Assembly: GCA_017993955.1 (NCBI GenBank)
Contig: JAGOLR010000003.1
Span: 6,878 to 70,877, forward strand
Direction of reading: 5' to 3'
Length of the DNA stretch: 64,000 nucleotides
Source: Candidatus Omnitrophota bacterium
Lineage (GTDB): Bacteria > Omnitrophota > Gorgyraeia > 2-01-FULL-45-10
The notes below the pieces were generated by a model. That model ran no database searches. It was given only the letters and a program-made list of their open reading frames with translations, and was not told the DNA's origin. Each line of letters opens with the position of its first letter. The first letter of the stretch is position 1. Shown one piece after another: positions 1-64,000 of the stretch. The position numbers and the translations under genes were made by a program.

Positions 1-241
1 AATATATATGTATGATAACCAGGTCTTCGATATCATAAGGACCCTTAAGCCTTCGGGGCGAGGGGAACTGGAGATAACGGATGTGAATAACGCCTATATT
101 AAAAGGGGCGAGCTTACGTATGGGGTTCTTGATGGCTGGTGGACCGACTCTGGCACATTCGATTCCCTTCTACGAGCTAATAACCTTGTCGCTAAAGATT
201 TCAGGCTGCATAATAAGTGCGGCACGGATGGTAATGATTAG
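1..241 (+). CDS. rfbA: glucose-1-phosphate thymidylyltransferase (RmlA), C-terminal fragment; the 5' end lies outside the window
   Basis: The translation 'ELEITDVNNAYIKRGELTYGVLDGWWTDSGTFDSLL' matches the conserved RmlA C-terminus. It is followed by rfbB/rfbD. Confidence 0.8.
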   Translation, partial: IYMYDNQVFDIIRTLKPSGRGELEITDVNNAYIKRGELTYGVLDGWWTDSGTFDSLLRANNLVAKDFRLHNKCGTDGND

Positions 242-259
242 GAGTATGGTTCAAGCTAT

Positions 260-1288
260 ATGAAAAAGATATTTGTCACCGGGTGCGCAGGGTTTATAGG
301 CTCTAATTTTGTCAGGCACATGCTTAACAAATACCCGGATTACCATATCACGAATCTTGATAAATTGACATATTGCGGTAATCTCGATAACCTTAAAGAT
401 CTTGAAGGTAATAAAAATTATAAATTTGTCAGGGGTGACATCGCGGATGAGAAGACCGTAGACGGCCTTGTAAAAGGTAGCGACGCTGTTATAAATTTTG
501 CCGCTGAGACACACGTCGACCGTTCGATAAGCGATCCTGCGTGTTTTGTCAGGACGAACGTTTTTGGTACGCATGCTCTTTTGGAAGCTGCAAAGAAGCA
601 CCGCGTGGCGCGTTATATTCAGATATCTACCGACGAGGTCTATGGGAGCATCCTCAAGGGAGAATTTAAAGAAGAAGACCCGCTTTTGCCGAACAGTCCT
701 TACTCTGCATCAAAGGCCGGCGCGGATCTTCTTGTCAGATCATACTTTGTTACCTATAAGCTCCCGGTGATAATAACCAGAAGCTCCAATAATTACGGTC
801 CTTATCAGTACCCGGAGAAAGTCATACCGCTCTTTATAACCAATCTAATAGAGGGTAAGAAGGTGCCTTTATATGCGGACGGAATGAATGTGCGGGACTG
901 GTTATATGTGATAGATAATTGCGAAGCCATAGATACAGTTCTGCATAAGGGGGAACCCGGAGAGATATATAATATAGGCGGCGGTAACGAGGTCACCAAT
1001 CTGGAACTGACGCGCACGATCCTTAAAGAACTTGGTAAAGATGAAAGTTCCATAGAATATGTCGCCGATAGGCCCGGGCATGACAAGCGCTATGCCTTAA
1101 GTATATCCAAGATAGCAAAACTTGGATGGAAACCGCGGCATGATTTTCATTCAGCGCTCCGCCTTACCGTTGAGTGGTACAAAAAAAATGCCGCGTGGTG
1201 GAATAAGCTGAAGGCGTGTAAAGTAGTTGTTCCTTCGTCATTGCGAGGGCCTGCCACAGAAGGCGGCGGCCCGAAGCAATCCAATTAA
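260..1288 (+). CDS. rfbB: dTDP-glucose 4,6-dehydratase
   Basis: N-terminal 'KIFVTGCAGFIGSNFVRHML' Rossmann motif, a YxxxK SDR core ('YSASKAGADLLVRSY') and length about 340 aa are typical of RmlB. The last about 20 codons run into a hairpin repeat element. Confidence 0.9.
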   Translation: MKKIFVTGCAGFIGSNFVRHMLNKYPDYHITNLDKLTYCGNLDNLKDLEGNKNYKFVRGDIADEKTVDGLVKGSDAVINFAAETHVDRSISDPACFVRTNVFGTHALLEAAKKHRVARYIQISTDEVYGSILKGEFKEEDPLLPNSPYSASKAGADLLVRSYFVTYKLPVIITRSSNNYGPYQYPEKVIPLFITNLIEGKKVPLYADGMNVRDWLYVIDNCEAIDTVLHKGEPGEIYNIGGGNEVTNLELTRTILKELGKDESSIEYVADRPGHDKRYALSISKIAKLGWKPRHDFHSALRLTVEWYKKNAAWWNKLKACKVVVPSSLRGPATEGGGPKQSN

Positions 1289-1290
1289 TT
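1236..1290. repeat. short hairpin-forming repeat element, copy 1 (tcgtcattgcgagggc...cccgaagcaatccaa)
   Basis: It shares the 'tcgtcattgcgagggc' and 'cccgaa(g/a)caatc(c/t)aa' blocks with the copy at 3518-3560. The core GGGCC/GGCCC arms can pair and are flanked by ATTGC/GCAAT. Confidence 0.55.
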
Positions 1291-2196
1291 ATGAAGCGTG
1301 TACTCATAATCGGCTCGAGCGGGATGCTGGGGTGCGATCTTTCTCGCGAGCTGCGGAAGTCGTATGTAGTTTGGGGTGCCGACGTAGTCCGCAGTCCACG
1401 GTCCATGGTCCACGGTTTTATAAAGTGCGACATATCGGATCGTGGGTGTGTGAGAACAATGATTAAGAAGGTCCGGCCCGATATCGTTATACATGCGGCG
1501 GCATGGACGGATGTGGACAGTTGCGAGAAGGACCCCCGCAAGGCCTATCGCATAAACCGGGATGGCACAGAAAACGTAGCCGTTGCATGCAAAAAATATA
1601 ATGCGACTCTTTTATACATAAGCACGGATTTTGTATTTAACGGCAAAAAGAATACGCCTTATAAGGAATCTGACAAGCCGGGGCCTTTGGGGGTTTATGC
1701 GGACTCAAAATTACAGGGCGAACGCGCCGTCAGGGCAAACATAAAAGACCATATAATTGTCCGCACAAGCTGGTTATACGGGAAGTGCGGAAATAATTTT
1801 GTAGATACCATAATCGCCAAGGCAGCCACTGAACCCGTGCTCAAGGTAGTCGATGACCAGGTCGGATCTCCGACATATACCAAAGACCTGGCCAAAGCGC
1901 TGCATGCACTTATTGATAAAATTTTTTCGATCAACAATAAACGAAAAACGATAAACGCACAAAGCATTTATCATATATCCAATTCCGGAGCAGTCTCCTG
2001 GTTTGATTACGCGAAGACGATCCTGCGTACGTCGCACCTGAAGACAAAAGTCGAGCCCATCTCTTCGTTGGAACTTGGCAGGCCAGCGAAGAGACCCGCA
2101 ATGTCGGCGCTGGATTGTTCAAAGTTTACTAAGTTAACAGGATTTAAGATGCGTAACTGGAAGATGGCATTGAAGGAATATCTAAGAAAGCGCTAA
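1291..2196 (+). CDS. rfbD: dTDP-4-dehydrorhamnose reductase
   Basis: 'VLIIGSSGMLGCDL...IVIHAAAWTDVDSCEKDP...YADSKLQGE' shows the RmlD pattern. It is adjacent to rfbB. It contains a short in-frame tandem repeat (gtccacggtccatggtccacgg). Confidence 0.85.
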   Translation: MKRVLIIGSSGMLGCDLSRELRKSYVVWGADVVRSPRSMVHGFIKCDISDRGCVRTMIKKVRPDIVIHAAAWTDVDSCEKDPRKAYRINRDGTENVAVACKKYNATLLYISTDFVFNGKKNTPYKESDKPGPLGVYADSKLQGERAVRANIKDHIIVRTSWLYGKCGNNFVDTIIAKAATEPVLKVVDDQVGSPTYTKDLAKALHALIDKIFSINNKRKTINAQSIYHISNSGAVSWFDYAKTILRTSHLKTKVEPISSLELGRPAKRPAMSALDCSKFTKLTGFKMRNWKMALKEYLRKR

Positions 2197-2205
2197 AGGG
2201 GAATT

Positions 2206-3510
2206 ATGGTAAAAGAACTGAAAAAAAAGATACTCGATAAAAAAGCGGTTGTCGGGATCATAGGATTGGGATATGTCGGCTTGCCTCTTGCGGTGACTTT
2301 CGCTAAGGGTGGATTCAAGGTATATGGCATAGATATAGATAAGCATCGCGTTGAACGTCTGAAAGAAGGCGAGACGCATATACTGGATGTATCCATAGAC
2401 GATGTTATCGAGACTATGCGCGCCAAAAGATTTATTCCAACGACCGATGCGTCGGTTATAAAGAGTGCCGACGCGGTCATAATATGTGTTCCAACCCCTT
2501 TAAATAAGACCAAGGAGCCGGATGTATCGTTCATAGTATCTGCCGTAGAGAGTATCAAAAAGCATATGAAGCGCGGCCAGATAATAGTGCTTGAGTCGAC
2601 CACATACCCGGGTACTACAGATGAGGTGATGTTACCTGTCCTTGAGGCCGATGGGATGAAAGAGGGGAAAGATTTTTTCCTTGCCTTCTCGCCTGAAAGG
2701 GTCGACCCCGGCAATCCTCACTACAAGACGGAAAATACCCCAAAGGTCATAGGGGGGTTATCTCCTGCTTCAACGGAACTTGCCCAGGCCCTGTATTCGC
2801 AAGTGATCGATAAGATAGTTCCCGTATCATCCGCGAAAGTCGCGGAGATGGTAAAGCTCCTCGAAAATACCTTCCGGATAGTTAACATAGGGCTGGTCAA
2901 CGAGATAATGCTGATGTGCGATAAGCTCGGCATCGACGTATGGGAGGTTATAGACGCGGCTAAGACCAAACCTTATGGCTTTATGCCTTTTTATCCTGGA
3001 CCCGGAGTCGGGGGGCATTGCATACCCGTCGATCCCATATATCTATCTTGGAAGGCCAGGGGGCACGGTTTTGAAGCGCGTTTTATAGATCTTGCTTCGC
3101 ATGTTAACTCGCAGATGCCTCATTATGTAGTCGAGAAGGTAACGTCTGGTTTGAACGAGCATAGGAAATCCTTGAACGGTTCCAAGGTATTGGTTCTCGG
3201 TGTAGCATATAAAAAGGATGTCAAAGATCTCAGGGAATCGCCCTCTATTGAAATAATAGCGCTTCTGCAGAAGAAGGGGGCAAAAGTTTCTTATTACGAC
3301 CCTCTTTTGCCGTATCTTAAAATGGACGGCATAGATCTCGATTCGGTAAAATTTACGAAAGATGTTTTTAGATCGGCGGATTGCGTCGTGATCGTGACTG
3401 ACCATTCGAATGTCGATTATGATTTTATCCTCGATAGTTCGAAACTCGTTATCGATACGCGCAATGTCTTGAAGCATGTCGAAAAGAGAGATAGGATAAT
3501 TAAATTGTAA
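2206..3510 (+). CDS. UDP-N-acetyl-D-glucosamine (or ManNAc) 6-dehydrogenase, WbpA/TviB/WecC family nucleotide-sugar dehydrogenase
   Basis: The 'VGIIGLGYVGLPLAVTFA' NAD-binding N-terminus resembles the TviB/WbpA type rather than the Ugd GxGYVGL type. It has the catalytic Cys region 'GPGVGGHCIPVDP'. Length is 434 aa. Confidence 0.8.
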   Translation: MVKELKKKILDKKAVVGIIGLGYVGLPLAVTFAKGGFKVYGIDIDKHRVERLKEGETHILDVSIDDVIETMRAKRFIPTTDASVIKSADAVIICVPTPLNKTKEPDVSFIVSAVESIKKHMKRGQIIVLESTTYPGTTDEVMLPVLEADGMKEGKDFFLAFSPERVDPGNPHYKTENTPKVIGGLSPASTELAQALYSQVIDKIVPVSSAKVAEMVKLLENTFRIVNIGLVNEIMLMCDKLGIDVWEVIDAAKTKPYGFMPFYPGPGVGGHCIPVDPIYLSWKARGHGFEARFIDLASHVNSQMPHYVVEKVTSGLNEHRKSLNGSKVLVLGVAYKKDVKDLRESPSIEIIALLQKKGAKVSYYDPLLPYLKMDGIDLDSVKFTKDVFRSADCVVIVTDHSNVDYDFILDSSKLVIDTRNVLKHVEKRDRIIKL

Positions 3511-3517
3511 TGCTTAC

Positions 3518-3560
3518 TGGTTATCATCGTCATTGCGAGGGCGAAGCCCGAAACAATCTA
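3518..3560. repeat. short hairpin-forming repeat element, copy 2 (tcgtcattgcgagggcgaagcccgaaacaatctaa)
   Basis: It contains the GGGC-GAA-GCCC mini-hairpin (GCGAAGC-type). It is homologous to the copy at 1236-1290 and is intergenic. Confidence 0.55.
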
Positions 3561-3585
3561 ACAAATATCAACATGAGGATTTCTT

Positions 3586-4518
3586 ATGGGACACTATTTA
3601 GTTACCGGCGGCGCCGGGTTTATAGGTTCGAATATCGTTGAAGAGCTGGTAAGACGCGGCAAGAAAGTCCGTGTCCTGGATAATTTTATAACCGGCAAGA
3701 TGGAAAATATAAAGCCATTTCTTAATAAGATAGAGTTGGTAAAGGGGGATATAAGGGACCGAAGCACCCTCAGAAGGGCCTTTAAGGGTATCGACTATGT
3801 CATTCACCAGGCGGCCTTAAGGTCTGTGCCAAAGTCAGTCGACGATCCATTTACTACAAATGATATAAATGTCGCCGGCACTTTGAATGTACTCTACGAA
3901 GCCAAGATGGCCAAAGTGAAGAGGGTGGTGTATGCATCATCAAGCTCTGCCTACGGCGACGCAAAACATTTTCCGCAGCGGGAGACCGACACCCCGGAAC
4001 CGATATCCCCGTATGGAGTTTCGAAGCTTGCAGCCGAACACTATTGCGTTACCTTCGCAAAAACCTTCGGTCTTGAAACGGTCTCTCTGCGTTATTTCAA
4101 TGTATTCGGACCGCGCCAGAATCCGGAGTCGAAATATTCCGCAGTTATACCCATCTTTATATTTAATATGATAAGGGGGGAGTCACCGGTAGTCGATTGG
4201 GACGGTAAACAGTCCAGGGATTTCACATATGTCGCCAATGTCGTGGAGGCGAATATCAGGTCTTGCACCGCTAAAGGCGTTTCCGGAGAGGTCTTTAATG
4301 TGGCCTGCGGCACGACGACTTCGGTGAATGATATAGTAAGACAACTGAACAGGCTTCTCGGGAAAAAGATTAAGCCCGTCTTTGCGCTAAAACGTCACGG
4401 CGATGTGAGGAAGACATACGCGAGCGTTTCAAAGATGAGGAAACTTCTTGGAATAAAAAAACTGGTAGGTTTTAATGAGGGCCTTGAGCGTACGCTCGAA
4501 TGGTTTCTGGAGAAATGA
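3586..4518 (+). CDS. NAD-dependent sugar epimerase, WbpP/TviC-like (UDP-GlcNAc(A) 4-epimerase family)
   Basis: '[18 protein letters not shown]...[13 protein letters not shown]' and the YxxxK motif ('[11 protein letters not shown]') are present. It is paired with a TviB/WbpA-like dehydrogenase immediately upstream. Confidence 0.75.
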
Positions 4519-5450
4519 AAAAACGAGTGCTGATTACCGGCGGCGCCGGATTTATCGGATCGCATTTATGCGACCTGTTCTTAGGCAAGGGATACAGCGT
4601 AATCTGCGTCGATAACCTGATCACGGGTAAGATGGCGAATATAAGCCATCTGATTCAAGATAAAAATTTCGATTTTGTTAAACACAATGTATCCGAACAT
4701 ATCACAGTGAAGGGGAGAATAGATTACGTTCTCCATTTCGCATCCCCCGCAAGCCCCATAGATTACCTTAAATACCCGATACCTACGCTTAAAGTCGGTT
4801 CGCTGGGGACGCATAATGCCCTGGGCCTGGCAAAGGCGAAAAAGGCCGTCTTCCTTTTGGCATCTACAAGTGAAGTTTACGGCGATCCTCTTGTTAACCC
4901 CCAGCCTGAGTCATATTGGGGAAACGTGAATCCCGTCGGGCCTCGCGGCGTATATGACGAGGCGAAGAGGTTTGCCGAAGCCATGACTATGGCCTATCAC
5001 CGCTATCACGGGCTTGATTGCAAAATAGTCAGGATATTTAATACATATGGGCCGCGAATGCGCGAAAACGATGGCCGCGCCATCCCGAATTTTATCAGCC
5101 AGGCGCTTAGCGGAAAGCCTATCACTGTTTACGGCGATGGCTCACAGACGAGAAGCTTTTGTTATGTTTCGGATCTTGTCGACGGGCTTTATAGGCTTCT
5201 TATGTCACGTGAAAATGATCCGGTAAATATCGGGAATCCTAACGAGATGACGCTCCTCGAGCTTGCGAATTTGATAATTAAACTAACTGGTTCGAGAAGT
5301 AAGATAGTTTATAAAAAATTACCTGTGGACGATCCAAAGGTAAGACGTCCGAATATATATAAGGCAAAAAAAGAGCTGGGTTGGAGACCGGGGGTAGGTC
5401 TCAAACAAGGGCTGATAAGAACGATATCCTATTTTAAGGAGCTGAAATAA
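4515..5450 (+). CDS. UDP-glucuronate decarboxylase (UDP-xylose synthase, UXS/ArnA-decarboxylase family)
   Basis: There is near-collinear similarity to UXS1: '[17 protein letters not shown]', '[10 protein letters not shown]', '[11 protein letters not shown]', '[10 protein letters not shown]', '[10 protein letters not shown]'. The start is taken at the ATG overlapping the upstream stop (ATGA). Confidence 0.9.
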
Positions 5451-6566
5451 GTGCATATACCATTATTAGACCTCAAGGCGCAGTACGCAACTATAAAAAA
5501 TGAAGTCGAAGTTGCGATTAAGAATGTCGTGGAGAACCAGGATTTTATTCTGGGAGAAGAGGTAAAGAATTTGGAGAGGGAGGTTGCGGTATATTGCGGC
5601 ACAAAATATGGCGTTGGAGTAGCTTCGGGTACCGATGCGCTCATACTTGCTCTTAGAGCACTGGATGTGGGTCCCGGAGATGAAGTGGTAACGACCCCTT
5701 TTACATTCTTTGCTACCGCTGAATCTATATCGATTGTCGGCGCTAAGCCGGTATTTGTGGATATAGATCCCAAGACTTATAACATAAACGCAGATTTAAT
5801 AGAAAAAAGTATAACAAAAAAGACGAAAGCCATAATCCCGGTCCATTTATACGGTCAATGTGCCGAGATGGATCCCATAATTAATATAGCCAAGAAATAC
5901 AACCTTAAAATCATCGAAGATGCGGCTCAAGCCATAGGGGCGGCTTATAAAGGCAGAAAGGCCGGTTCGATAGGCGATATCGGAGCGCTCAGTTTTTTCC
6001 CGAGCAAGAACCTTGGCGGTTTTGGTGACGGGGGGATGGTAGTTACCGATGATGGGAAAATTGCCGATCGCGTAAGGACATTGCGTGTTCATGGCAGCTC
6101 GGTACGGTATATTCATTCCGAAATAGGAATGAATTCCCGGCTAGATAATCTCCAGGCTGCGATTTTGAGGATTAAGTTAAAGCACCTTGATAAATGGTTG
6201 GGTGGAAGGAGACAATTGGCATCGTTTTATAAGGAAAAATTTACGAAACTTCCTATCGAGTGTCCAGGTGTTCCGGATTATAGTATTCATACATATCACC
6301 AATACACTCTTAGGGTTTGCGATGGGGTTCCTGGAACAAAAGAAAAGCTGACAAGATTTTTACAAGACGGCGGAATAGAGGCAAGAACGTATTATCCCAT
6401 ACCTCTTCACCTTCAGGACTGTTATAAGCCTTTGGGGTACAAAACGGGGGACATGAATGAATCGGAAAGCGCTTCAAAGGAAGTCTTTTCTATTCCGATT
6501 TTTCCAGAGATATCTATAGCTCAAAGAGACTATATAGTTGACAGGATGGGAAGATTCTTTAAATGA
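5451..6566 (+). CDS. DegT/DnrJ/EryC1/StrS family PLP-dependent sugar aminotransferase (WbpE-like); GTG start
   Basis: 'LLDLKAQYATIKNEVEVAI...GVASGTDALILALRAL' is present. The PLP-Lys region is 'SFFPSKNLGGFGDGG'. Confidence 0.85.
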   Translation: MHIPLLDLKAQYATIKNEVEVAIKNVVENQDFILGEEVKNLEREVAVYCGTKYGVGVASGTDALILALRALDVGPGDEVVTTPFTFFATAESISIVGAKPVFVDIDPKTYNINADLIEKSITKKTKAIIPVHLYGQCAEMDPIINIAKKYNLKIIEDAAQAIGAAYKGRKAGSIGDIGALSFFPSKNLGGFGDGGMVVTDDGKIADRVRTLRVHGSSVRYIHSEIGMNSRLDNLQAAILRIKLKHLDKWLGGRRQLASFYKEKFTKLPIECPGVPDYSIHTYHQYTLRVCDGVPGTKEKLTRFLQDGGIEARTYYPIPLHLQDCYKPLGYKTGDMNESESASKEVFSIPIFPEISIAQRDYIVDRMGRFFK

Positions 6567-6579
6567 AAAAACGGGAGCT

Positions 6580-7614
6580 ATGAGTATGGTAACTCTTGGA
6601 CAAATCGGAGTTGGAGTATGGGGTAAAAACCATTTGCGTAATTACTCTATGATGAACGAATGCAGGGTCAAGATTTGTTGCGACAAGAATAAAAAAGTTT
6701 TAGATATGGTCAAGTCGGATTATAAAGGTGAGATACGAACTACCTGCGATCCGGAAGATATATTTAATGATCCTCAAATCGATGGCGTTGTGATTGCGAC
6801 TCTTCCAGACACTCACGCAGCGTTGGCCATAAAGGCTATGAACAGCGGAAAACATGTATTTATAGAAAAACCTCTTGCTATGAGCACCGCTGAGGGGGTC
6901 CGGATAAAGAAAGCCGCTGAAAAAAGCAAAAAAATATGCATGGTTGGTCATATTCTCCTTTATCACCCCGCGGTTTTAGCGTTAAAAAAATATATAAATA
7001 ACGGATACTTGGGAGATATCCTTTATATATACTCATCTAGGGTCAATCTCGGGCAGGTGCGCAAAGAAGAGAACGCTTTATGGAGCCTCACCTCACACGA
7101 TATTTCTGTAGTTCTTTATCTTTTAGGTAAGTTCCCTGAAAGTGTTTCAGCCGTGGGCGCTTCCTATTTAAGAAAAAACATTGATGATGTGGTTTTTGTA
7201 AATCTTTTTTTTGCTAACAATAAAATTGCTCATATACATGCCAGTTGGTTGGATCCGCATAAAATACGTCAGTTTACAGTTGTGGGGTCTAAGAAGATGG
7301 CAGTTTTTAACGATATGGAAGCGTCCGAAAAACTGAAGATATATGATAAGGGCTTTGATAAGATCATGGATAAAAATTCTTATGAGTCATTTCTTGCTAT
7401 ACGTAGCGGCGACGTCTTATCTCCTAAGATAGATATTGAAGAGCCACTTAAACGGGAATGCATGTATTTCCTGAAATGTATTAATGATAATCGTCAGCCT
7501 CTTACTAATGTTAACAACGGAATAGAAGTGCTGAAAATATTGGAAGCTGCTCAAAAATCGCTCGATAGTGGCGGAAGAAATATTGCACTGAGACAAAGCC
7601 CCAGGTGCAGATGA
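6580..7614 (+). CDS. Gfo/Idh/MocA family NAD-dependent oxidoreductase (WbpB-like UDP-sugar 3-dehydrogenase). The start is uncertain: ATG at 6580 or 6586, or TTG at 6538
   Basis: 'IGVGVWGKNHL' Rossmann motif and 'HVFIEKPLAMSTAEG' are present. A GGGAG Shine-Dalgarno sits at 6573-6577. Confidence 0.8.
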   Translation: MSMVTLGQIGVGVWGKNHLRNYSMMNECRVKICCDKNKKVLDMVKSDYKGEIRTTCDPEDIFNDPQIDGVVIATLPDTHAALAIKAMNSGKHVFIEKPLAMSTAEGVRIKKAAEKSKKICMVGHILLYHPAVLALKKYINNGYLGDILYIYSSRVNLGQVRKEENALWSLTSHDISVVLYLLGKFPESVSAVGASYLRKNIDDVVFVNLFFANNKIAHIHASWLDPHKIRQFTVVGSKKMAVFNDMEASEKLKIYDKGFDKIMDKNSYESFLAIRSGDVLSPKIDIEEPLKRECMYFLKCINDNRQPLTNVNNGIEVLKILEAAQKSLDSGGRNIALRQSPRCR

Positions 7615-8189: not shown

Positions 8190-8252
8190 GTGCCATCTCT
8201 TCAAAAATCACTCATCTTTCCAAAAATATCCTTAAGCGCAGGTACAATTATA

Positions 8253-8281: not shown

Positions 8282-8301
8282 ATGTTCAATTAGTGAACAC
8301 A

Positions 8302-55495: not shown

Positions 55496-56461
55496 ATGAG
55501 AGCGGCATTGGTTACCGGAGGAGCTGGTTTTATAGGGTCACATTTGTCGGAAAGGCTTCTGAGAGAAGGGTGGAAGGTCTATGTGGTTGATAACCTCTCG
55601 ACCGGTTTTAAAGAGAACATCCCTGCGGGGGCCGAATTTGTCTTTCTTGATCTTTCGAAAGATGATTTTGCGCAATCGCTTCCCCGAATCCGATTTGATG
55701 CTGTTTTTCACCTGGCCGCGCAATCTTCGGGAGAGATCTCGTTTGATGACCCTGTCTACGACTTGAAGACCAATTGTCTGAGCACTCTTATATTGCTCGA
55801 TTGGTGTGTGAAACATGGTATTAAGCGGTTTCTCTATACCAGTTCTATGTCGATATACGGGGACCAGGAGCAGCAGCCCGTGAGAGAAGATGCGCCTTTT
55901 GCGGCAAAATCTTTTTATGGTGCAGGCAAGCTGGCTTCTGAAAGCTATGTGAATATCTACTCGAAGATGGGCATTGACACCACATCGCTGCGCCTTTTCA
56001 ATGTGTATGGACCGGGTCAGAATATGCAGAATCTCAGGCAAGGCATGGTCAGTATATTCATGGCGTATATACTCAAGAAGGAAGAGATACTTGTCAAGGG
56101 CTCGCCCGATCGTTACAGAGATTTTGTCTATATTGACGATGTTGTTGAGGCGTATATGAAGTGCCTTACGAACACACGGACGTTCGGGAAGACGTATAAT
56201 GTAGCTTCGGGCGAACGGAATTATGTGCGTGATCTTATCGAACTCGAACTCAAAGCATTCGGGTATGACTCGGCCGCCTATCCGGTCAGATATAGCGGAA
56301 CGACGCCAGGCGATACTTTCGGCATATTCGCCGATACCGCGGCCATTCAAATGGATACGGGATGGAGCCCGAGGTTTTCTCTGGCGGAAGGGCTGAAGAG
56401 GATGTCTGAATGGGCTATCTCGGCCAAGCAAATATCTACAGCGCCCCGGAGGCATAAATGA
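55496..56461 (+). CDS. NAD-dependent sugar epimerase/dehydratase (GalE-like SDR)
   Basis: '[19 protein letters not shown]' and '[11 protein letters not shown]'. Confidence 0.75.
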
Positions 56462-57519
56462 AAAAGGCATTGATTACCGGAATAACTGGGCAGGATGGTT
56501 CTTATCTTGCGGAATTTCTTTTGTCGAAGGGTTACGAAGTGCATGGGATTATTCGCCGTTCAAGTAGTTTCAATACTAAGCGGATAGAGCATCTGTACCA
56601 GGATTCGCATCTGCCGGGGACCCGTCTACTGCTGCATTACGGGGATCTATCCGATGAGGGGCAGATAACGGATCTCATATACAATATCCGCCCTGAAGAA
56701 ATATACAATTTGGGGGCCCAGAGTCATGTTAAGGTCAGTTTTGACATGCCTAAATATACGGGCGATGTTGATGCGCTGGGAACGACAAGATTGCTGGAAG
56801 CGATAAGGCGTAGTGGTATAAAGACTAGATTTTATCAGGCGTCATCAAGCGAAATGTTCGGTTCCGCGCCCGCGCCACAGGATGAAACGACTCCTTTTCA
56901 TCCGCGCAGCCCGTATGCCTGCGCAAAAGTGTACAGTTATCATATGACGATCAACTACCGGGAAGCATACGGCTTATTTGCGTGTAACGGCATCCTTTTT
57001 AATCATGAATCTCCACGTCGAGGCAGTACATTTGCAACCAGGAAGATTACTCGCGGTCTGGCCAGGATCCGCGCCGGATTGGATAAGAAGATATATCTCG
57101 GCAATCTGGAATCGAAGAGAGATTGGGGATTCGCTCCCGAATATGTAGAGGCAATGTGGATGATGATGCAGCATGACCGTCCGGATGATTACGTGCTAGG
57201 AACAGGCGAAACTCACTCATTGAAAGAGTTGCTCGAGAACGCATTCGGGTATGTCAATGAGGACTGGAAAAAATATGTAGAGATCGACGCGCGCTATTTT
57301 CGGCCTACGGAAGTCGAGAACCTGCGGGCTAATTCCGCTAAAGCTAAAAAGACGTTCGGATGGAGCCCGAAGATCAAGTTTCCGGAGTTGATTCAGATCA
57401 TGGTAGATTACGATTTTCTGTTCTTGGGAATGGAGCCGCCTGGCAAAGGGTTTGAACTATTAAAACAACAAAATCTGGCCTGGACCGATCATACTCTGCT
57501 CAATGAGGATCACCGATGA
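56458..57519 (+). CDS. gmd: GDP-mannose 4,6-dehydratase
   Basis: '[37 protein letters not shown]' is nearly identical in pattern to E. coli Gmd. Confidence 0.92.
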
Positions 57520-58448
57520 TGGAAAGGGAAAGCAGGATATACATTGCCGGTCATAAAGGTCTGGTTGGCAGCGCCCTGATGAGGATGCTGTCGGGACGGG
57601 GCTACCGGAATGTTATTGTGAAGCGGCGCGACGAGCTTGATCTTAGGTGTCAACTATCAGTGAGATCGTTTTTTGAAAAAGAAAGACCTGACTATGTCTT
57701 TCTCGCGGCAGCAAAAGTTGGCGGTATCTGGGCTAATGATTCTTATCCTGCGGATTTTATTTATGACAATGTAATGATACAGAGCAACGTGATTCACGAG
57801 GCATACCGCGCCAACGTAAAGAAACTATTGTTCCTTGGAAGCTCATGCATCTACCCCAGGGATTGCCCTCAGCCTATTAAAGAAAGATATCTTCTTTCCG
57901 GACCTCTTGAAAAAACGAATGAAGCGTATGCTGTGGCGAAAATATGCGGCATAAGGATGTGCCAATCGTATCGAAAACAGTACGGGTGCAATTATATTTC
58001 GGGCATGCCGACAAACTTATATGGACCGAACGACAATTTTGATCTGAAATCGGCTCATGTCATACCTGCACTAATCAGGAAATTTTACGAAGGCAAGGTG
58101 CAAAATAAGCCGAGCGTAGAAATCTGGGGCAGCGGGAACCCGCGTAGGGAGTTTCTTTATGTCGACGATCTTGCTGAGGCCTCTTTGTTCTTGATGGAGC
58201 AGTACAACGAGTCCGAAATAATCAACATAGGCACCAATAAGGATGCCTCGATCATAGAGATTGCCGGTATTATAAAGGAGTGTATCGGTTATAAAGGAGC
58301 GATTGTATGTAACCCCGCCATGCCGGATGGCACCCCTCAAAAGCTCTTAGATGTGACCAGGATCAACGCTCTTGGCTGGGCCGCAAAGACGCTTCTGCAA
58401 GACGGGATACGGAATACGGTAAAGTGGTACACAGAGGAACAGAAGTAA
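57516..58448 (+). CDS. fcl: GDP-L-fucose synthase (GDP-4-keto-6-deoxymannose 3,5-epimerase/4-reductase)
   Basis: '[15 protein letters not shown]', '[11 protein letters not shown]', 'PADFIYDN' and '[10 protein letters not shown]' are collinear with Fcl/WcaG. Confidence 0.9.
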
Positions 58449-59890
58449 TGCAAGATCTCTTAGACAGCTGCTACTCAGATTATAGGGACAGAAGGGCAGG
58501 GCACTGGGATGCGGTCGCTAGCCACATGGATCATATGTTCCAAGGAGGACGCTATTATCATAAACGATTGGAAGAGATATACCGCTTTTTGGTGCCGCGT
58601 GGACAAAAAGTGCTTGAGATCGGTTGTGGAAATGGCGAGCTCCTTGCATCGCTTGAGCCTTCGAAAGGTGTCGGGATAGATTTTTCTTCGCAAATGATAG
58701 AAAGGGCCAAGAGAAGATATCCTCGCCTTACGTTTTTTCTTATGGATGCGCATGAACTGGCGATAGATGATACATTCGATGTCATAATCCTATCGGATAT
58801 AGTCGATGATCTCTACGATGTGTTGACTGTCTTGCGGCAGCTTAAGAAAGTTTCAAATCCTCGTACAAGAATAATAATTAATTCGTACAGCCGTTTGTGG
58901 GAGCTGCCGCTGAAGCTGGCAAGACTATTAAAATTGAGCAGACCCACTTTGACCCAGAATTGGCTTACGGTCGAAGATATCCGAAATCTTCTCTTTCTTG
59001 CAGATATCGAGGTCGTGCATAAAACCGAAGAGATTCTGGTGCCGGTGCACATTCCTTTTGCCGCCGCTTTTTTCAACCGGTTCCTGGTAAAGATATGGCC
59101 GTTTAATAATCTGGCGCTGACCAATTTTATAATCGCGCGCCCGGTTTCCCGCGTTAGTATCCAGACGGATCAGCCTATGGTGTCGGTTATCGTCCCCGCC
59201 CGCAACGAAGCTGGGAACATACCGAACATAATTGCGCGGGTGCCGGAGATGGGTTCCGGGACCGAGCTTGTATTTGTTGAGGGGTTCTCAAGCGATGATA
59301 CATATGAGGAGATAGAAAAGGCGATTTCTGCGCATCCTGAAAGACGATGTAAACTTTTGAAGCAACCAGGTAAAGGGAAAGGGGACGCTGTTAGGGCGGG
59401 GTTTGCAGCGTCCAGCGGCGATGTCCTTATGATATTAGATGCCGATCTGACCGTTGCGCCAGAAGATCTGAAACGTTTCTACGAAGTATTGATTTTAAAC
59501 AAGGCGGAATTTGTCAATGGAGTGCGACTGGTCTACCCAATGGAAGAGAGATCGATGTATTTCTTTAATTTGTTGGGCAATAAGTTCTTCAGTATTGTTT
59601 TTTCGTGGATCATAGGACAGCCCACAAAAGATACTCTTTGCGGAACAAAAGTTCTATGGCGGTCCGAGTACGAGAGTATCGTCGCGAACAGGGCGTATTT
59701 TGGTGATTTCGATCCTTTTGGTGATTTCGACCTGCTTCTTGGAGCGGCGAAGTTAAACTTGAAGATAGTAGAATTGCCGGTTAGGTACCGCAAAAGAGTT
59801 TATGGAATGACCAACATACAGCGATGGAAACACGGCCTTCTACTGCTAAGGATGTCCATTTTTGCCGCCAAACGTATAAAATTTATATGA
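58448..59890 (+). CDS. bifunctional protein: N-terminal class I SAM methyltransferase fused to a C-terminal GT2 (polyprenol-phosphate/DPM1-like) glycosyltransferase
   Basis: N-terminal 'VLEIGCGNGELLASL' and 'FDVIILSDIVDDL'. C-terminal 'VSVIVPARNEAGNIPNI' and 'LMILDADLTVAPEDL'. TAATG overlap with fcl. Confidence 0.7.
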   Translation: MQDLLDSCYSDYRDRRAGHWDAVASHMDHMFQGGRYYHKRLEEIYRFLVPRGQKVLEIGCGNGELLASLEPSKGVGIDFSSQMIERAKRRYPRLTFFLMDAHELAIDDTFDVIILSDIVDDLYDVLTVLRQLKKVSNPRTRIIINSYSRLWELPLKLARLLKLSRPTLTQNWLTVEDIRNLLFLADIEVVHKTEEILVPVHIPFAAAFFNRFLVKIWPFNNLALTNFIIARPVSRVSIQTDQPMVSVIVPARNEAGNIPNIIARVPEMGSGTELVFVEGFSSDDTYEEIEKAISAHPERRCKLLKQPGKGKGDAVRAGFAASSGDVLMILDADLTVAPEDLKRFYEVLILNKAEFVNGVRLVYPMEERSMYFFNLLGNKFFSIVFSWIIGQPTKDTLCGTKVLWRSEYESIVANRAYFGDFDPFGDFDLLLGAAKLNLKIVELPVRYRKRVYGMTNIQRWKHGLLLLRMSIFAAKRIKFI

Positions 59891-59894
59891 CATC

Positions 59895-60686
59895 ATGCCC
59901 ATGATCACTATCCTGAAGAATATTTTCGCTCACCCCTTAACGAAGGGACTCGATCTCAACGATCCAAAGACTACGGAATTGAGACGCAGGATCGTAAGAG
60001 AAAAAAAATTTTTAAGAAAGGTATACGAAGAATGGTATTTGCAGTTATCTGATTCCATGCGTGACACTGACGGAGTGGTTTTGGAAATAGGCGCGGGAGC
60101 GGGGTTCCTTGAAGAATATATGCCAGGCATTGTAAAGTCAGATATTTCTAAAACTACGGGTATCGATGTGGTTATGGATGCCTGTCGGCAATTTCCTTTT
60201 TCCGATGGTTCCCTAAGTGCCATAGTAGGGATTAATGTCCTTCATCATTTATCGGATCCGAAAAAGTTTTTTTCCGAAGCTTCTAGGTGTGTGCGAAAGA
60301 ACGGGTGCATCTATATGATAGAGCCTTGGGTAACGTCGTGGTCGTCTTTTGTATACAAAAGATTGCATGACGAACCTTATTTTCCTGATGCTGCTGATTG
60401 GGGGTTTGTCAGCAATGGACCTCTAACTAGTGCCAACAGTGCTTTGCCGTGGATCATGTTTGAAAGGGATCGCCGGGTATTCGAGCGGGAATTCCCCGCC
60501 TGGAAGATCAGCGGGATTAGTTTGCAAATGCCGTTTCTGTATTTGTTATCCGGAGGGGTTTCGTTGAGAAGCCTGAGCCCTGGCTTTACTTTTTCGACCT
60601 GGAAATGCATTGAAAAGCTATTTGGGCCTTTCATGCAGCGGTGGGCCATGTTCGCGAATATAAAACTTGTTAATGCGAATAAGTAG
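59895..60686 (+). CDS. class I SAM-dependent methyltransferase
   Basis: 'VLEIGAGAGFLEEYM' and 'IVGINVLHHLSDP'. Confidence 0.7.
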   Translation: MPMITILKNIFAHPLTKGLDLNDPKTTELRRRIVREKKFLRKVYEEWYLQLSDSMRDTDGVVLEIGAGAGFLEEYMPGIVKSDISKTTGIDVVMDACRQFPFSDGSLSAIVGINVLHHLSDPKKFFSEASRCVRKNGCIYMIEPWVTSWSSFVYKRLHDEPYFPDAADWGFVSNGPLTSANSALPWIMFERDRRVFEREFPAWKISGISLQMPFLYLLSGGVSLRSLSPGFTFSTWKCIEKLFGPFMQRWAMFANIKLVNANK

Positions 60687-60718
60687 CGCTGATCCATGGC
60701 GAAAAATAAGGAGAAAAG

Positions 60719-61789
60719 ATGCTAAAAAGTGCATGGTCAAATATGGTACGAAAATACAGTTTTTTTCGTTATTATGTTCGACCTTTTCGTTTTTCGATGT
60801 TTCGGTATCAGATGGGGCAACGTTTAAAATCACGGCTAAGCATTTCTGGTGGGTTTAGGATCATAGATCTTGCGATAACATACTCTTGCAATCTTCATTG
60901 CAAACACTGCTCTGCTTCTGTGCTGGAAAGCGAACGAGCTCCGCTCGGCCTCGAAGAGTACAAAAAAATCACATGCCAAGCAAAATCTTTTGATAATTTA
61001 TCGTACAATATAACCGGTGGCGAGCCGCTTATGGTCGAATGGCTTGACGATCTTATACCTGTGCTTGATCCTGCGCGTCATTTTATCAGTATTCAGACGA
61101 ATTGCATGCTTTTAAGTGCAAAAAGGGCAAAACAATTAGCTCGTCTAGGCGTGAATTGCATAACAACGAGTCTGGATAGCGCAGATGAAAAGGAACACAA
61201 TCATTTTAGAGGGTCGTCAGACTCATACAGGAAAGTGCTCGAAGGTTTGGATAATGCGATTAAGGCGGGGATGAGTGTGCTCGTCGGCGGCACCGTGACT
61301 CACCAGAACTTGCGGTCTGCGGAGCTACAACGGTTAATAGAGAAGGTGAATAGTCTTGGCGCGATCTTTCTTTTTAATATTGGCGTGCCATGCGGTGAGT
61401 GGAAAGATAACCGGGATATGTTGTTCAGGGATGACGACAGGGACTATCTTTTGAAGCTCATGGAAACATATCCGATGACATCTACGGATCACGAAATAAA
61501 TCGTCATACCGTAGGATGCCCCGCAGGAAAAGAGAAGGTATATATCACTTCATATGGCGATGTATTGCCATGCCCATTTATACATGTTTCGTTTGGTAAT
61601 GTGCGTACAATGCCTCTAGCAGAAATTATCGCGCGAATGAATAAAATAAGTTTGTTTGGAAAATACGCAAACATATGCGTTGCTGCTGAAGACAGGGATT
61701 TTCAGAAGAATGTGCTTTCGAGGGTTGGTTCTGTGTCTGAGCCGAATAGAGCTCCAATTTCCTATAAAGACGTATACGGGGAGCTGTGA
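60719..61789 (+). CDS. radical SAM protein with a C-terminal Cys-rich (SPASM/twitch-like) region
   Basis: 'ITYSCNLHCKHCSA' (CxxxCxxC) and 'GGEPLM', later 'GCPAGKEKVYITSYGDVLPCPF'. An AAGGAG Shine-Dalgarno lies upstream. Confidence 0.7.
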   Translation: MLKSAWSNMVRKYSFFRYYVRPFRFSMFRYQMGQRLKSRLSISGGFRIIDLAITYSCNLHCKHCSASVLESERAPLGLEEYKKITCQAKSFDNLSYNITGGEPLMVEWLDDLIPVLDPARHFISIQTNCMLLSAKRAKQLARLGVNCITTSLDSADEKEHNHFRGSSDSYRKVLEGLDNAIKAGMSVLVGGTVTHQNLRSAELQRLIEKVNSLGAIFLFNIGVPCGEWKDNRDMLFRDDDRDYLLKLMETYPMTSTDHEINRHTVGCPAGKEKVYITSYGDVLPCPFIHVSFGNVRTMPLAEIIARMNKISLFGKYANICVAAEDRDFQKNVLSRVGSVSEPNRAPISYKDVYGEL

Positions 61790-62772
61790 TGACTAACCGA
61801 AAAGATTCTAAAGTACGCTGCGAATGCGTTACTTGTGCCGTGTGTGGAAGCGACCGAAGCGGCGTCGTTGCGAGCGGGTTTGACTATGAGTATTGGACCG
61901 TAGATCAAAAGTTCACCTTTGTCAATTGTCTTGATTGTGGCCACCTCTATTTAAACCCCAGGCCAATTCGCAGTGAGGCGGATTCGATCTATCCGAAAAA
62001 TTATTATACACTTTCAGGAAGACATACTTCGCGTTCATCAAAAACTATTTCTTTTTTTAAGAATATAATAATCAAAAAGCGCCTCTCGTTCTTTAACCAG
62101 ATCCTTGATTCAAATGCGAGTGTTTTAGAGGTAGGCTCGGGTGATTGCTCATTATTGATCAGCCTTAAAAAAACTTATCCGAGGTTGAATCTCTCTGGCA
62201 TAGATCTTGCGTACAGTGACATCGTGAAATCGCAATGTAGCGAGATAGGGATTGCACTTATCGAAGGTGCCATTGAAGATCTGCGGTTGCCAGAGAGCGC
62301 GTACGATCTAGTTATTATGAATCAGCTGATAGAGCATCTGTGGGATCCTCAGGGAGTAGTTTCTAAAATAGGATTATCGCTTAAGCCAGCCGGATTTATC
62401 AGCATCGAAACACCGGAAGCATGCGGATATGACAGACAATTCTTTTTCAATTCTTTCTGGGGGGGATATTACTTCCCGCGGCATATGAACCTGTTTTCTT
62501 TTGATAGTATTAAAAGGTTGTTGGAGAAGAATGGTTTTTCTGTTACAGGTCATTATTCGTTGGTCGCGCCGATAGTATGGGCATTCAGTTTTAAGGCATT
62601 TTTTTGCCGTACTCGGAACTCGAAGCATAGGGGCGGCGTGCTAGACAGGTTCTTTAGTGACGCGAATTCTTTTTGTCTTGCATTCTTTTCGTTTTTGGAC
62701 ATATGTGCGATATTTTTTGGATTGACGACGTCAAATCAAAAAATCATAGCGAGGAAAAATGAGAAGACCTAA
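61786..62772 (+). CDS. SAM-dependent methyltransferase with an N-terminal zinc-ribbon (C-methyltransferase-like architecture)
   Basis: 'CVTCAVCGS...CLDCGHLY' and 'VLEVGSGDCSLL', 'DLVIMNQLIEHLWDP'. Confidence 0.7.
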   Translation: MMTNRKDSKVRCECVTCAVCGSDRSGVVASGFDYEYWTVDQKFTFVNCLDCGHLYLNPRPIRSEADSIYPKNYYTLSGRHTSRSSKTISFFKNIIIKKRLSFFNQILDSNASVLEVGSGDCSLLISLKKTYPRLNLSGIDLAYSDIVKSQCSEIGIALIEGAIEDLRLPESAYDLVIMNQLIEHLWDPQGVVSKIGLSLKPAGFISIETPEACGYDRQFFFNSFWGGYYFPRHMNLFSFDSIKRLLEKNGFSVTGHYSLVAPIVWAFSFKAFFCRTRNSKHRGGVLDRFFSDANSFCLAFFSFLDICAIFFGLTTSNQKIIARKNEKT

Positions 62773-62787
62773 TGTCGCGGAGAATGT

Positions 62788-63591
62788 TTGCTTGTGTATA
62801 TATTGCTGGAACCGGGCAGGCTTAATACCATGAGTGAGCATAGTAGGGCACGGGCCGATAACGAGATAGTTCATGGTAGAGCGCTTGCTGTGTCGGACAC
62901 TGAGTTCATTTGGGGATGGGGAACGCCGGCGGGTCGTTTACGAGCCACGAGAAGGGCCGATCTTATCGCTAAGGGTGCGGGATTAAGGCCAGGAGCAGTC
63001 GCTCTAGAGATAGGATGTGGCACCGGAATGTTTACCCAGATCTTTGCCCGGTCCGGAGCCAGGATCTTGGCTGTCGATATCTCTCCTGATTTATTGCAGA
63101 AAGCCAGAGCGCGCGATCTGTCTTCAAGCGATGTCACTTTTCTGGAAAAAAGGTTCGAAGATTGCGATTCGCTTGGGCCGTTCGATGCGATCATCGGTTC
63201 ATCCATACTGCACCATTTGGAAGTAAGGGAAGCATTATCGAAAATATATAACCTGCTCAAGCCAGGCGGTGTTATCAGTTTTGCCGAGCCTAACATGATG
63301 AACCCGCAGATATTTCTCGAGCGGAAATTTCGTAAGTTCTTTCCTCATATTTCACCGGACGAGACGGCGTTTATACGGTGGGAGTTGCGGAAAACATTAA
63401 TTGGTGCAGGCTTTAGCAGTATTGATGTCAGGCCGTTCGATTTTTTGCATCCGGCTATACCGCCTCCGTTTATTGGTATCGCTACCGCGATAGGACGCGT
63501 CATTGAGCGAACTGCCGCGCTCAAGGAGTTCGCGGGGTCTCTTTATATATATGGCAAAAAGCCTGAACGGACCGGCGTGACGCAGGGATGA
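62788..63591 (+). CDS. class I SAM-dependent methyltransferase (the start is possibly the ATG near 62830)
   Basis: 'ALEIGCGTGMFTQIFARSGARILAVDIS' and 'FDAIIGSSILHHL'. Confidence 0.7.
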   Translation: MLVYILLEPGRLNTMSEHSRARADNEIVHGRALAVSDTEFIWGWGTPAGRLRATRRADLIAKGAGLRPGAVALEIGCGTGMFTQIFARSGARILAVDISPDLLQKARARDLSSSDVTFLEKRFEDCDSLGPFDAIIGSSILHHLEVREALSKIYNLLKPGGVISFAEPNMMNPQIFLERKFRKFFPHISPDETAFIRWELRKTLIGAGFSSIDVRPFDFLHPAIPPPFIGIATAIGRVIERTAALKEFAGSLYIYGKKPERTGVTQG

Positions 63592-64000
63592 ATGATATGG
63601 CTATGAAGCTATCAAAAAAAGAGTTGTGGATTTCAGCTTTTATCCTGTTCTTATTGGTATGTATTGATTTCAGTCCTATTGTTTCGAGTTCGGGTTATCC
63701 GCTCGCCGACATTGATAATAACTGGAGCTATGCATTCAAGTATCATGCTGCCCGGAGTATCAGCGATGGGGAGTTTCCGCTGTGGAATACCTATTTTTTA
63801 CGGGAACGCCTTTATATGATAATGACATCTCCAATAACCCCTTGAATTGGATAGCGCTCGCTTTTGCTCTGGTGCTGAATTATTTTCGTAACCCGTATCT
63901 AGCGTATTCTCTGCTCATTGCCGTACAGATATTTTTAATGGGCTGGTTTACCTATATAGCAGCTCGTAAGGTCTTTGGCTTAATACCCGCGATTGCCTAT
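63588..64000 (+). CDS. membrane protein (partial at the window end) with an apparent -1 frameshift at a T6 run (about 63794-63799)
   Basis: Frame A 'MNDMAMKLSKKELWISAFILFLLVCI...EFPLWNTYF' stops at 63845. An overlapping frame continues 'TGTPLYDNDISNNPLNWIALAFALVLNYF...GLIPAIAY' to the window end. One extra T would join them. Confidence 0.4.

Follow-up and report, generated by a model that had tools for sequence, protein, structure and literature searches.

We analyzed a 64,000-nt stretch of the Candidatus Omnitrophota contig JAGOLR010000003.1 (positions 6,878–70,877; hereafter the window), which is filled by a gene cluster for surface-glycan synthesis. The window carries 61 called genes at 260–63591, together with a partial RmlA gene at its 5' edge and a partial YfhO gene at its 3' edge. 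Pfam and NCBIfam matches place nearly all of the 61 in sugar-nucleotide synthesis, glycosyl transfer, tailoring, export or regulation, bearing out a sequence-only reading that had called the stretch a glycan super-cluster. The cluster extends past the window, with UGDH, RmlC and RmlA genes upstream and more glycan genes downstream. The window is probably the core of an Omnitrophota cell-envelope glycan region of at least 75 kb, resembling lipopolysaccharide (LPS)/O-antigen loci or serving another surface glycoconjugate, which shares a lineage-wide strand bias, comprises at least three transcription units and is built from mosaic modules.

All features described below lie on the + strand. The window opens with the 3' end of rmlA (glucose-1-phosphate thymidylyltransferase; 1–241), recognizable by its C-terminus in translation and by a 252-aa NTP_transferase gene ending at record position 7118, which is window position 241. 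The genes at 260–8189 (Pfam; NCBIfam TIGR03026, 473.8 bits) then encode, in order, RmlB, RmlD, a WbpA/UDP-ManNAc-dehydrogenase-like protein, two short-chain dehydrogenase/reductase (SDR) epimerase/dehydratases, and DegT, GFO/IDH/MocA and hexapeptide acetyltransferase proteins. Judged from these families, the set looks like dTDP-L-rhamnose synthesis joined to a WbpA/B/E/D-like route to UDP-2,3-diacetamido-uronic acid, whose gene set, as in the Wbp pathway, is the one seen here.

The first of two winged-helix regulators (8301–8681) and a class I S-adenosylmethionine (SAM) methyltransferase gene (8671–9403) lead into a transferase and modification block at 9376–33251 (Pfam, NCBIfam). It encodes four GT4/GT1 and two GT2 glycosyltransferases; the GT2 protein at 19299 matches ArnC, PpgS and AglJ (polyprenyl-phosphate sugar synthases) weakly and adjoins three PMT_2-like GT-C membrane proteins (20092–24672) scoring at or just under cutoff. 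As regards three-component periplasmic glycosylation (a GtrB/CsbB-type GT2 protein, a GtrA flippase and a GT-C transferase), no GtrA-like gene was seen; a YfhO GT-C gene lies downstream. The block further contains a WecB 2-epimerase (278 bits against a cutoff of 210), an SDR, one B12-radical-SAM enzyme, two GNATs, a polysaccharide deacetylase, three methyltransferases, a DegT protein, an FAD amine-oxidase-like protein, an AsnB-type amidotransferase and a transglutaminase-core protein.

Beyond the second regulator (33310–33804) lie two nonulosonate modules, both recognized through Pfam and NCBIfam. Module 1 (33813–43578) runs from a cytidylyltransferase–methyltransferase fusion through a radical-SAM enzyme, a PseF-like cytidylyltransferase, NeuB, a TylF O-methyltransferase and two B12-radical-SAM enzymes to a PF27878-family GT-B glycosyltransferase, and is collinear with the related Omnitrophota locus L097 (57–91% identity) and partly with L096. 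Module 2 (43550–47461) encodes a KDN-9-P/KdsC-like HAD phosphatase, a second NeuB, a PseF-like cytidylyltransferase, a class IV aminotransferase and a radical-SAM/SPASM protein. Two proteins matching NeuB (218 and 260 bits to Pfam) and three domains of the PseF-like cytidylyltransferase type qualify the window as a nonulosonic acid gene cluster. Both NeuB proteins (37111–37959, 282 aa; 44083–44976, 297 aa) align with no more than the first 275 or so positions of the 329-position model and lack the C-terminal SAF (antifreeze-like) domain found in canonical sialic-acid synthases.

Modules 1 and 2 are followed at 47461–51434 by a 722-aa methyltransferase-domain protein and a fused transmembrane and nucleotide-binding domain ABC exporter of the HepA/MsbA/PglK type (49632–51434; HepA 476 bits against a cutoff of 725, MsbA 390, PglK 247). 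GC content is lower here (0.37–0.40) than in any other segment of the window, the 722-aa protein contains large unannotated regions, and the segment may be a more recent acquisition. Genes for a B12-radical-SAM enzyme, an HpcH/HpaI-type aldolase, a KdsB-type CMP-3-deoxy-octulosonate synthetase and a methyltransferase occupy 51483–55490. KdsB passes its NCBIfam cutoffs (298.2 against 255 and 169.5 against 155.2). The B12-binding domain of the radical-SAM enzyme aligns from residue 2 of a long form (the TTG 51471 open reading frame, ORF), and we take the in-frame TTG 51483 as the probable start, since translation from it gives MKITLISP, a beginning usual in this family. A GDP-sugar and tailoring module (55496–63591; Pfam) completes the array with an SDR, GDP-mannose 4,6-dehydratase, a GDP-fucose-synthase-like SDR, a methyltransferase–GT2 fusion, a methyltransferase, a radical-SAM/SPASM protein and two methyltransferases, before the 5' part of the YfhO-family GT-C gene (63597–64000) leaves the window; its YfhO Pfam match lies on an 837-aa call in the assembly record L009.

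Radical-SAM genes are unusually dense for a glycan locus. Seven start at 15618, 35081, 38661, 40256, 46661, 51483 and 60719, four with a B12-binding domain and three with or near SPASM, and they are accompanied by about twelve class I methyltransferase domains. The part downstream of the second regulator accounts for three B12-radical-SAM enzymes, three other radical-SAM enzymes and many methyltransferases. Pairs of B12-radical-SAM genes also stand beside NeuB/cytidylyltransferase genes in the related loci L093, L095 and L097, and a single one in L096. Among the papers listed by full-text literature searches, none connects radical-SAM enzymes with nonulosonate pathways. Two gene fusions were found, the cytidylyltransferase–methyltransferase (33813–35081), which directly follows the second regulator in L096 and L097 too, and the methyltransferase–GT2 protein (58448–59890).

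The 638-aa protein encoded at 41662–43578, at the end of module 1, is the one gene product without a family hit of its own. It has 38 homologs, mostly from Omnitrophota with a few from Dehalococcoidales, and many of them belong to the new Pfam family PF27878. An AlphaFold model (pLDDT 87.3, pTM 0.87) shows a GT-B fold whose best match among solved structures is the bacterial polysialyltransferase 5wcn (E 1e-6, TM 0.33/0.50, 9% identity). A sequence search of the PDB gave no meaningful match, and a scan of species-representative genome contigs returned no relatives. We also considered an LIC12162-family protein at the same position in L093 as a relative, and rejected it because the two share no BLASTP similarity. 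From the fold match and its position, the 638-aa protein is a candidate nonulosonate transferase.

Strand layout and module exchange

Greedy non-overlapping ORF calling placed 59 ORFs on the + strand of the window and none on the − strand, and every family-supported long ORF is on the + strand. The eight longest minus-strand ORFs (149–310 aa) had zero Pfam matches. Searches of the window for tRNA and tmRNA genes found none, an Rfam scan produced no family reaching its gathering score, long or IS-like repeats were not detected, and no transposase or integrase domain appeared in the Pfam tables of the window genes. The sequence-only reading was therefore right that about 60 supported genes share one strand without an opposite-strand gene, mobile element or RNA gene. 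It had also held that few pathways of this size are laid out in this way, which is true of bacteria generally and fails in Omnitrophota.

The one-strand run is at least 81 kb long and takes in glycan and non-glycan genes alike (GGDEF, transaldolase, LptD-like). Upstream lie genes for a MalK-like ATPase, two GGDEF proteins, transaldolase, an LptD/CT351-like protein, UGDH, RmlC and RmlA, all on the + strand. The downstream flank, read from a longer assembly of the same population with precomputed Pfam hits, continues through YfhO with a 2-hydroxyacid dehydrogenase, an SDR, a cyclase, a HAD protein, an LIC13510-like surface-carbohydrate protein and another SDR, again all on the + strand. GC skew is above zero in all 2-kb bins of the window, which suggests that the coding strand is the leading strand; GC content varies by segment from 0.37 to 0.48.

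Across eight Omnitrophota loci fetched around the transaldolase gene, 85 of 86 ORF-called genes were co-oriented. The same transaldolase query in other taxa gave 608 of 908 genes (67%) over 72 loci, with a uniform strand in just 2 of the 58 non-Omnitrophota loci of at least 12 kb. All called genes were likewise on the + strand in the related Omnitrophota loci L093, L095, L096, L097 and L098. By our own arithmetic, a run of about 60 co-oriented genes is expected roughly half the time at a per-gene co-orientation of about 0.99. According to West-Roberts et al. (2023, bioRxiv 10.1101/2023.11.21.568195), each replichore of a complete Omnitrophota genome has nearly all of its genes on a single strand. 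Our observations resemble that bias in the co-oriented run, in the positive skew on the coding strand and in the relatives, and differ in that they come from a single contig of a metagenome-assembled genome (MAG) and its extensions, whereas the published account is based on three curated complete genomes. The one-strand layout is an already reported lineage trait of Omnitrophota genomes and not a property of the cluster. Because such coding is genome-wide in Omnitrophota, the layout is uninformative on operon structure, and long one-strand runs in this phylum must not be taken as operons or as a property of a particular pathway.

The taxonomic setting is consistent throughout. Look-ups of identical proteins also locate the window in the MAG GCA_020047475.1, at positions 6878–70877 of its 71.7-kb contig JAHZTK010000866.1. 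The flanking transaldolase is 80–85% identical to those of Omnitrophota MAGs from groundwater, and NCBI names the source of the window proteins Candidatus Omnitrophica. An archaeal origin, prompted by the winged-helix regulators and PMT_2-like proteins, was ruled out by the GGDEF, LptD-like and KdsB genes and the NCBI taxon names. Contigs of the same strain in the European Nucleotide Archive (ENA) assembly ERZ2648158 (L005, L008, L011) differ from the window almost entirely by indels, with 122 gap openings over 16.7 kb; that assembly breaks up many genes and looks error-prone, and its split gene calls are untrustworthy.

Gene order in the relatives is conserved in blocks that are joined differently from locus to locus. 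The 5' side is stable: GGDEF, transaldolase, LptD-like, UGDH, rmlCABD, UGDH and two SDR genes are syntenic in L012 and L014 (55–85% identity), and the order of the nucleotide-sugar genes at 260–8189 is kept in L012, L014, L093 and partly L098 (47–88% amino acid identity). The locus L097 is collinear with the window over 25.8–44 kb, across the second regulator. In L093, an ortholog of the first regulator is followed directly by orthologs of the second NeuB (77%) and of the radical-SAM/SPASM protein (60%), so that about 35 kb of the window is missing there. In L098, orthologs of the genes at 2206–6566 are joined directly to orthologs of those at 56458, 57516, 58448 and 62788, and an ortholog of the second regulator heads a different gene set with Wzm/Wzt. 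Paralogs inside the window are old (23–43% identity). Read from these rearranged gene orders, the region is a patchwork of modules exchanged within Omnitrophota, in agreement with the hypervariable polysaccharide cassettes described for chromosomes of this phylum. The comparison directly shows the reshuffling of surface-glycan modules in a group of bacteria that is poorly understood and probably host-dependent.

A genomic island gained by horizontal transfer, or a hypervariable cassette of surface genes, might explain the same observations, its uniform orientation having come from insertion en bloc. GC content is heterogeneous (0.37–0.48), close relatives differ in their modules, with about 35 kb absent between the first regulator and the second NeuB in L093, and a preprint of 2026 describes Omnitrophota chromosomes with hypervariable polysaccharide cassettes, citing one of 25 kb (bioRxiv 10.64898/2026.06.07.730766). 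The window resembles those cassettes as a surface-glycan locus with module content that differs between related genomes, but it is larger, and the likeness was seen here by comparison between genomes. We regard acquisition as an island as somewhat unlikely. The window yielded neither an integrase or transposase nor a tRNA or flanking repeat, the 5' flank (GGDEF, transaldolase, LptD-like, UGDH, rmlCABD) is syntenic in several Omnitrophota, and orientation is uniform outside the cluster as well. The organism-named closest homologs of the three proteins searched are from Omnitrophota, apart from a few Dehalococcoidales for the 638-aa protein, and module exchange within the phylum agrees with a mosaic envelope-glycan region.

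One recurrent group of genes deserves separate mention: the second regulator with its 20-nt palindrome, the cytidylyltransferase–methyltransferase fusion, a SAF-less NeuB, two B12-radical-SAM enzymes and the PF27878 GT-B protein. We tentatively hypothesize, while holding it rather unlikely, that this conserved module is an undescribed pathway to C-alkylated or radically modified nonulosonic acids on the surface of host-dependent nanobacteria. If so, surface diversity relevant to host attachment or to evasion of phage or host would arise as genomes mix and match such modules.

Glycan type and assembly route

Two features favor an LPS-linked or other lipid-linked envelope glycan, as far as gene families can indicate it: the LptD-like neighbor and the internal KdsB. 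The conserved 768-aa protein, resembling the LptD/CT351 outer-membrane barrel (upstream, L004 2013–4316), scores 22.8 bits to LptD_N, 75.6 to CT351 and 51 to LptD over its N-terminal part. Its gene lies between transaldolase and the first glycan gene, and directly precedes the cluster in several Omnitrophota.

The sequence-only reading had pointed to the flanking contig for an initiating phosphoglycosyltransferase, Wzx/Wzy/Wzz or a second ABC component, but none was found in the roughly 81 kb covered. The Polysacc_synt, Wzy_C, Wzz, Bac_transf and Glycos_transf_4 families of Pfam had no match in the window genes, nor did they appear among the precomputed hits of the flanking called genes. The only ABC protein in the DNA examined is the fused exporter (ABC_membrane + ABC_tran), which is not the pair of ABC2_membrane (Wzm) and Wzt. 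At the equivalent locus, relatives carry Wzx (Polysacc_synt) in L093 and Wzm/Wzt in L098.

The absence of Wzy, Wzz and a ligase from the DNA examined is also what might be seen if the cluster served protein glycosylation, placing heavily modified nonulosonates on pilin, flagellin, S-layer or giant surface proteins. The PMT_2/YfhO-type GT-C enzymes would suit such a role, and the two NeuB/cytidylyltransferase sets with their tailoring enzymes resemble flagellin and pilin glycosylation islands. Even so, we consider this distinctly unlikely. Neither a target protein gene nor a Maf/FlmG-type transferase or oligosaccharyltransferase (PglB/PglL) domain was detected by Pfam in the window, the LptD-like, KdsB, WbpABDE-like and AsnB-type proteins and the MsbA/HepA-type exporter point to lipid-linked envelope glycans, and the relatives bear Wzx or Wzm/Wzt at the equivalent locus.

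Regulators and predicted transcription units

The first regulator (8301–8681, 126 aa) is a MarR-family EPS-associated transcriptional regulator (MarR_EPS). It matches NCBIfam TIGR04176 at 122.6 bits (cutoff 88), with residues 11–111 aligned to model positions 4–104 of 105, and NCBI annotates a 126-aa protein under the identical name. This alignment and the NCBI form set the start at ATG 8301, and therefore 8190–8300 is a true gap. A candidate promoter, TTGACT-17-TACCAT, lies within this gap and is followed by the perfect palindrome TGTTCAattagTGAACA (together 8253–8299), ending 1 nt before the start codon. The palindrome has the form TGTTCA-N5-TGAACA (predicted operator sequence TGTTCAATTAGTGAACA; combined promoter–palindrome pattern ATATGTTCAANNNNTGAACA). 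MarR_EPS orthologs occupy the equivalent position in L093 and L095, with TTGACG-17-TATTAT-A-TGTTCAaaggaTGAACA and TTGACT-17-TATGAT-A-TGTTCAatgaaTGAACA upstream, respectively. The exact palindrome occurs once in the window, and no further copy was found there with 2–3 mismatches allowed. A distant MarR_EPS homolog heads a Wzz/nucleotide-sugar cluster.

The second regulator (33310–33804, 164 aa) is a GbsR/CudC-like winged-helix protein of the MarR superfamily and typical of Omnitrophota. MarR_2 matches it weakly, and CudC reaches 69.7 bits against a cutoff of 218 over nearly the whole length. Nearly all of its 353 homologs are 164 aa long, identities are 52–77% among the best 120 of the 353, and those bearing an organism name are Candidatus Omnitrophica/Omnitrophota; the Joint Genome Institute (JGI) labels several GbsR. 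Glycan genes adjoin the regulator in all four contexts available (the window, L096, L097 and L098). The two regulators are unrelated to each other as proteins, and we rejected the idea that they are paralogs heading repeated modules.

Upstream of the second regulator, spanning the end of the preceding gene and the gap, stands the predicted promoter TTGACA-16-TATAAT (33231–33258), which agrees with the sigma-70 consensus at 12 of 12 positions and is directly abutted by the palindromic operator-like site CGTTTAGAACATTTTAAACG (33259–33278; the combined feature is annotated as 33231–33279). It is the sole 12/12 match in scans of the window and flanks, where, by our estimate from base composition, 64 kb would contain about 0.06 matches with both strands counted. 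Overall counts of sigma-70 patterns were no different from shuffled controls, and as promoter evidence the 12/12 site and conservation across species are what carries weight. The orthologous regulator in L097 is preceded by TTGACA-17-TATCAT-CGTTTAGAACATTTTAAACA; in L098 the palindrome alone is kept (TGTTTAAAGCGTTTTAAACG), about 20 nt ahead of the start codon. A metagenome scan with a degenerate 18-mer recovered at least 120 loci, at least 8 of which encode a homolog of the GbsR-like regulator. In at least 7 independent metagenome loci the motif stands directly upstream of the regulator, following TTGACA-N15-18 and a −10-like hexamer, and the consensus is a 20-nt palindrome, CGTTTAAAAC|GTTTTAAACG. 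No second copy was found in the window, even with three mismatches. Since neither palindrome recurs in the window, no additional targets within the cluster can be proposed.

Two internal promoter–palindrome modules are predicted, at 8253–8299 and 33231–33279, each ahead of a regulator. Their conserved promoter–palindrome layouts are strong phylogenetic footprints of what we predict to be internal promoters with operator-like sites. The earlier proposal of two regulator-headed units stands insofar as both regulators have a conserved predicted promoter and palindrome, but it had assigned the dTDP-rhamnose and UDP-sugar genes to the block of the first regulator. Those genes (260–8189) lie upstream of it, and at least three units are therefore predicted.

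In the scheme we propose, Unit 0 (from before the window to 8189) would supply dTDP-rhamnose and UDP-diacetamido-uronic-acid-type precursors. Unit 1 (8301–33251) would start at a MarR_EPS-controlled promoter and provide glycosyltransferases, GT-C membrane transferases and sugar tailoring, and Unit 2 (33310 to beyond the window) would start at the consensus promoter under GbsR-like control and provide the two nonulosonate pathways, a KdsB/aldolase and a GDP-6-deoxyhexose branch, radical-SAM enzymes and methyltransferases, the putative nonulosonate transferase and the ABC exporter. Each regulator probably binds the palindrome abutting its own −10 box. On the most economical reading, this binding would produce autoregulation and gate the genes downstream.

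Gene packing is tight throughout. Among the 60 junctions in the gene calls, 28 are overlaps (nine of 4 nt and six of 1 nt), 24 measure 0–20 nt, four 21–50 nt and four more than 50 nt; the expected prevalence of overlapping or very short junctions therefore holds (52 of 60 overlap or measure at most 20 nt). The largest true gap is the 111 nt at 8190–8300 before the first regulator, the second the 75 nt at 3511–3585, which contains no regulator, and the third the 58 nt at 33252–33309 before the second regulator. A fourth gap, from 51435 onward after the ABC gene, measures about 36–48 nt with the B12-radical-SAM start taken as TTG (93 nt in the calls), and three further gaps are of about 30 nt. 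The regulator gaps rank first and third once the calls are corrected in this way; it is true that both regulators are preceded by sizeable gaps, but not that these are the only ones.

Two apparent gaps are products of frameshifts. The 130 nt at 9019–9148 are not intergenic and lie inside the methyltransferase gene at 8671–9403, which a +1 frameshift in a T5 run (8968–8972) divides into two ORFs of 115 and 84/161 aa; deleting one T restores a 243-aa ORF, in which the Methyltransf_23 match at residues 38–181 bridges the break. The apparent 190-nt gap before the YfhO call contains the true N-terminus of that protein, of which about 83 codons (63597–63845) are read in a different frame. A continuous 899-aa ORF (L009 12879–15577) results when a T6 run (about 63792–63797) is lengthened by one T. 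The MAG and a Logan short-read assembly are identical at this site, although they are not independent evidence, and the frameshift is probably present in the reads.

Terminator-like sites were at chance level in the three comparisons made (20 where 16.4 were expected, 25 for an expected 17.6 and 10 for an expected 17.1), with none inside gaps, and read-through from upstream may therefore occur. RNA folding of the gaps gave nothing significant except the operator palindrome (z = −2.2). A hairpin resembling repetitive extragenic palindromes (REP-like) occurs at 1235–1283 (TCGTCATTGCGAGGGCC...GGCCCGAAGCAATC), where it forms the 3' tail of the RmlB ORF and so its C-terminal tail, and again at 3527–3559 within the 75-nt gap; at the position of that gap relatives have 24 nt (L012), 2 nt (L014) or overlapping genes (L093). 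Further copies lie at record position 5720 (L004) and at L098 2144. The element has constant flanks (TCGTCATTGCGAGG ... CGAAGCAATC) around a variable inner stem-loop and is always on the coding strand at gene junctions. The 9-mer CATTGCGAG has a single occurrence in 1.13 Mb of non-Omnitrophota loci. The element might be an mRNA processing or stability hairpin.

A single giant operon, with one promoter upstream, translational coupling between its genes and the regulators as passengers, would agree with the 52 close junctions, with terminator-like sites at or below chance and with the lack of opposite-strand genes, but is very improbable, given that two of the three largest true gaps hold promoter–palindrome modules conserved in relatives, that close packing and one-strand coding are shared by unrelated flanking genes and the phylum, and that recombination of modules between relatives speaks against one indivisible unit.

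Several points weigh against a mosaic envelope-glycan region of at least three units. No terminator was found before either regulator, so transcripts may read through from upstream and the units may overlap. The MarR_EPS promoter agrees with the consensus at 9 of 12 positions, and its conservation is based on three loci. Strand bias in this MAG was seen on this contig and its extensions. The LptD-like and PMT_2 matches are weak; those of NeuB, PseF and HepA fall under their equivalog cutoffs and are too low to assign specific sugars. An initiating phosphoglycosyltransferase, Wzx, Wzy, Wzz, O-antigen ligase and Wzm/Wzt were not found in about 81 kb. Finally, two genes are frameshifted, and the pathway in this population may therefore be partly inactive.

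Comparison with known systems

The 638-aa protein shares with the polysialyltransferase 5wcn its GT-B fold, and its gene directly follows those for NeuB, a cytidylyltransferase and B12-radical-SAM enzymes; it is about 250 residues longer and 9% identical. Like other TIGR04176 regulators, MarR_EPS scores above the curated cutoff and sits within a polysaccharide locus, as it does in the window, L093, L095 and beside Wzz in the distant homolog. It differs in standing in the middle of the array after precursor genes, a position kept in Omnitrophota relatives, and in having a predicted TGTTCA-N5-TGAACA site. The second regulator resembles the GbsR/CudC (COG1510) choline/glycine-betaine regulators in size, winged-helix domain, weak CudC match and JGI naming. 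It is, however, far under the CudC cutoff, is found in glycan and not osmoprotectant loci, and belongs to a tight Omnitrophota family with its own 20-nt palindrome. By these comparisons it is a relative of GbsR/CudC in the same superfamily and not a member, an Omnitrophota-typical regulator with a sharply defined predicted promoter–operator, embedded in surface-glycan loci.

The cluster itself is of a known kind, and our results leave the current understanding of glycan clusters standing. It shares with O-antigen, LPS and capsule loci rmlABCD, a WbpA/B/E/D-like set, WecB, an AsnB-like protein, NeuB with CMP-transferases, GDP-mannose dehydratase/reductase, GT2 and GT4 glycosyltransferases and KdsB. 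Unlike them, it is far larger (64 to more than 75 kb), shows neither Wzx/Wzy/Wzz or Wzm/Wzt nor an initiating transferase or ligase over the DNA examined, and carries as its exporter a fused MsbA/HepA/PglK-type ABC protein. It also departs from them in its seven radical-SAM enzymes (four with B12), about twelve methyltransferase domains and SAF-less NeuBs. The more interesting residue of the comparison is the conserved nonulosonate, B12-radical-SAM and GT-B module with its regulator and predicted operator.

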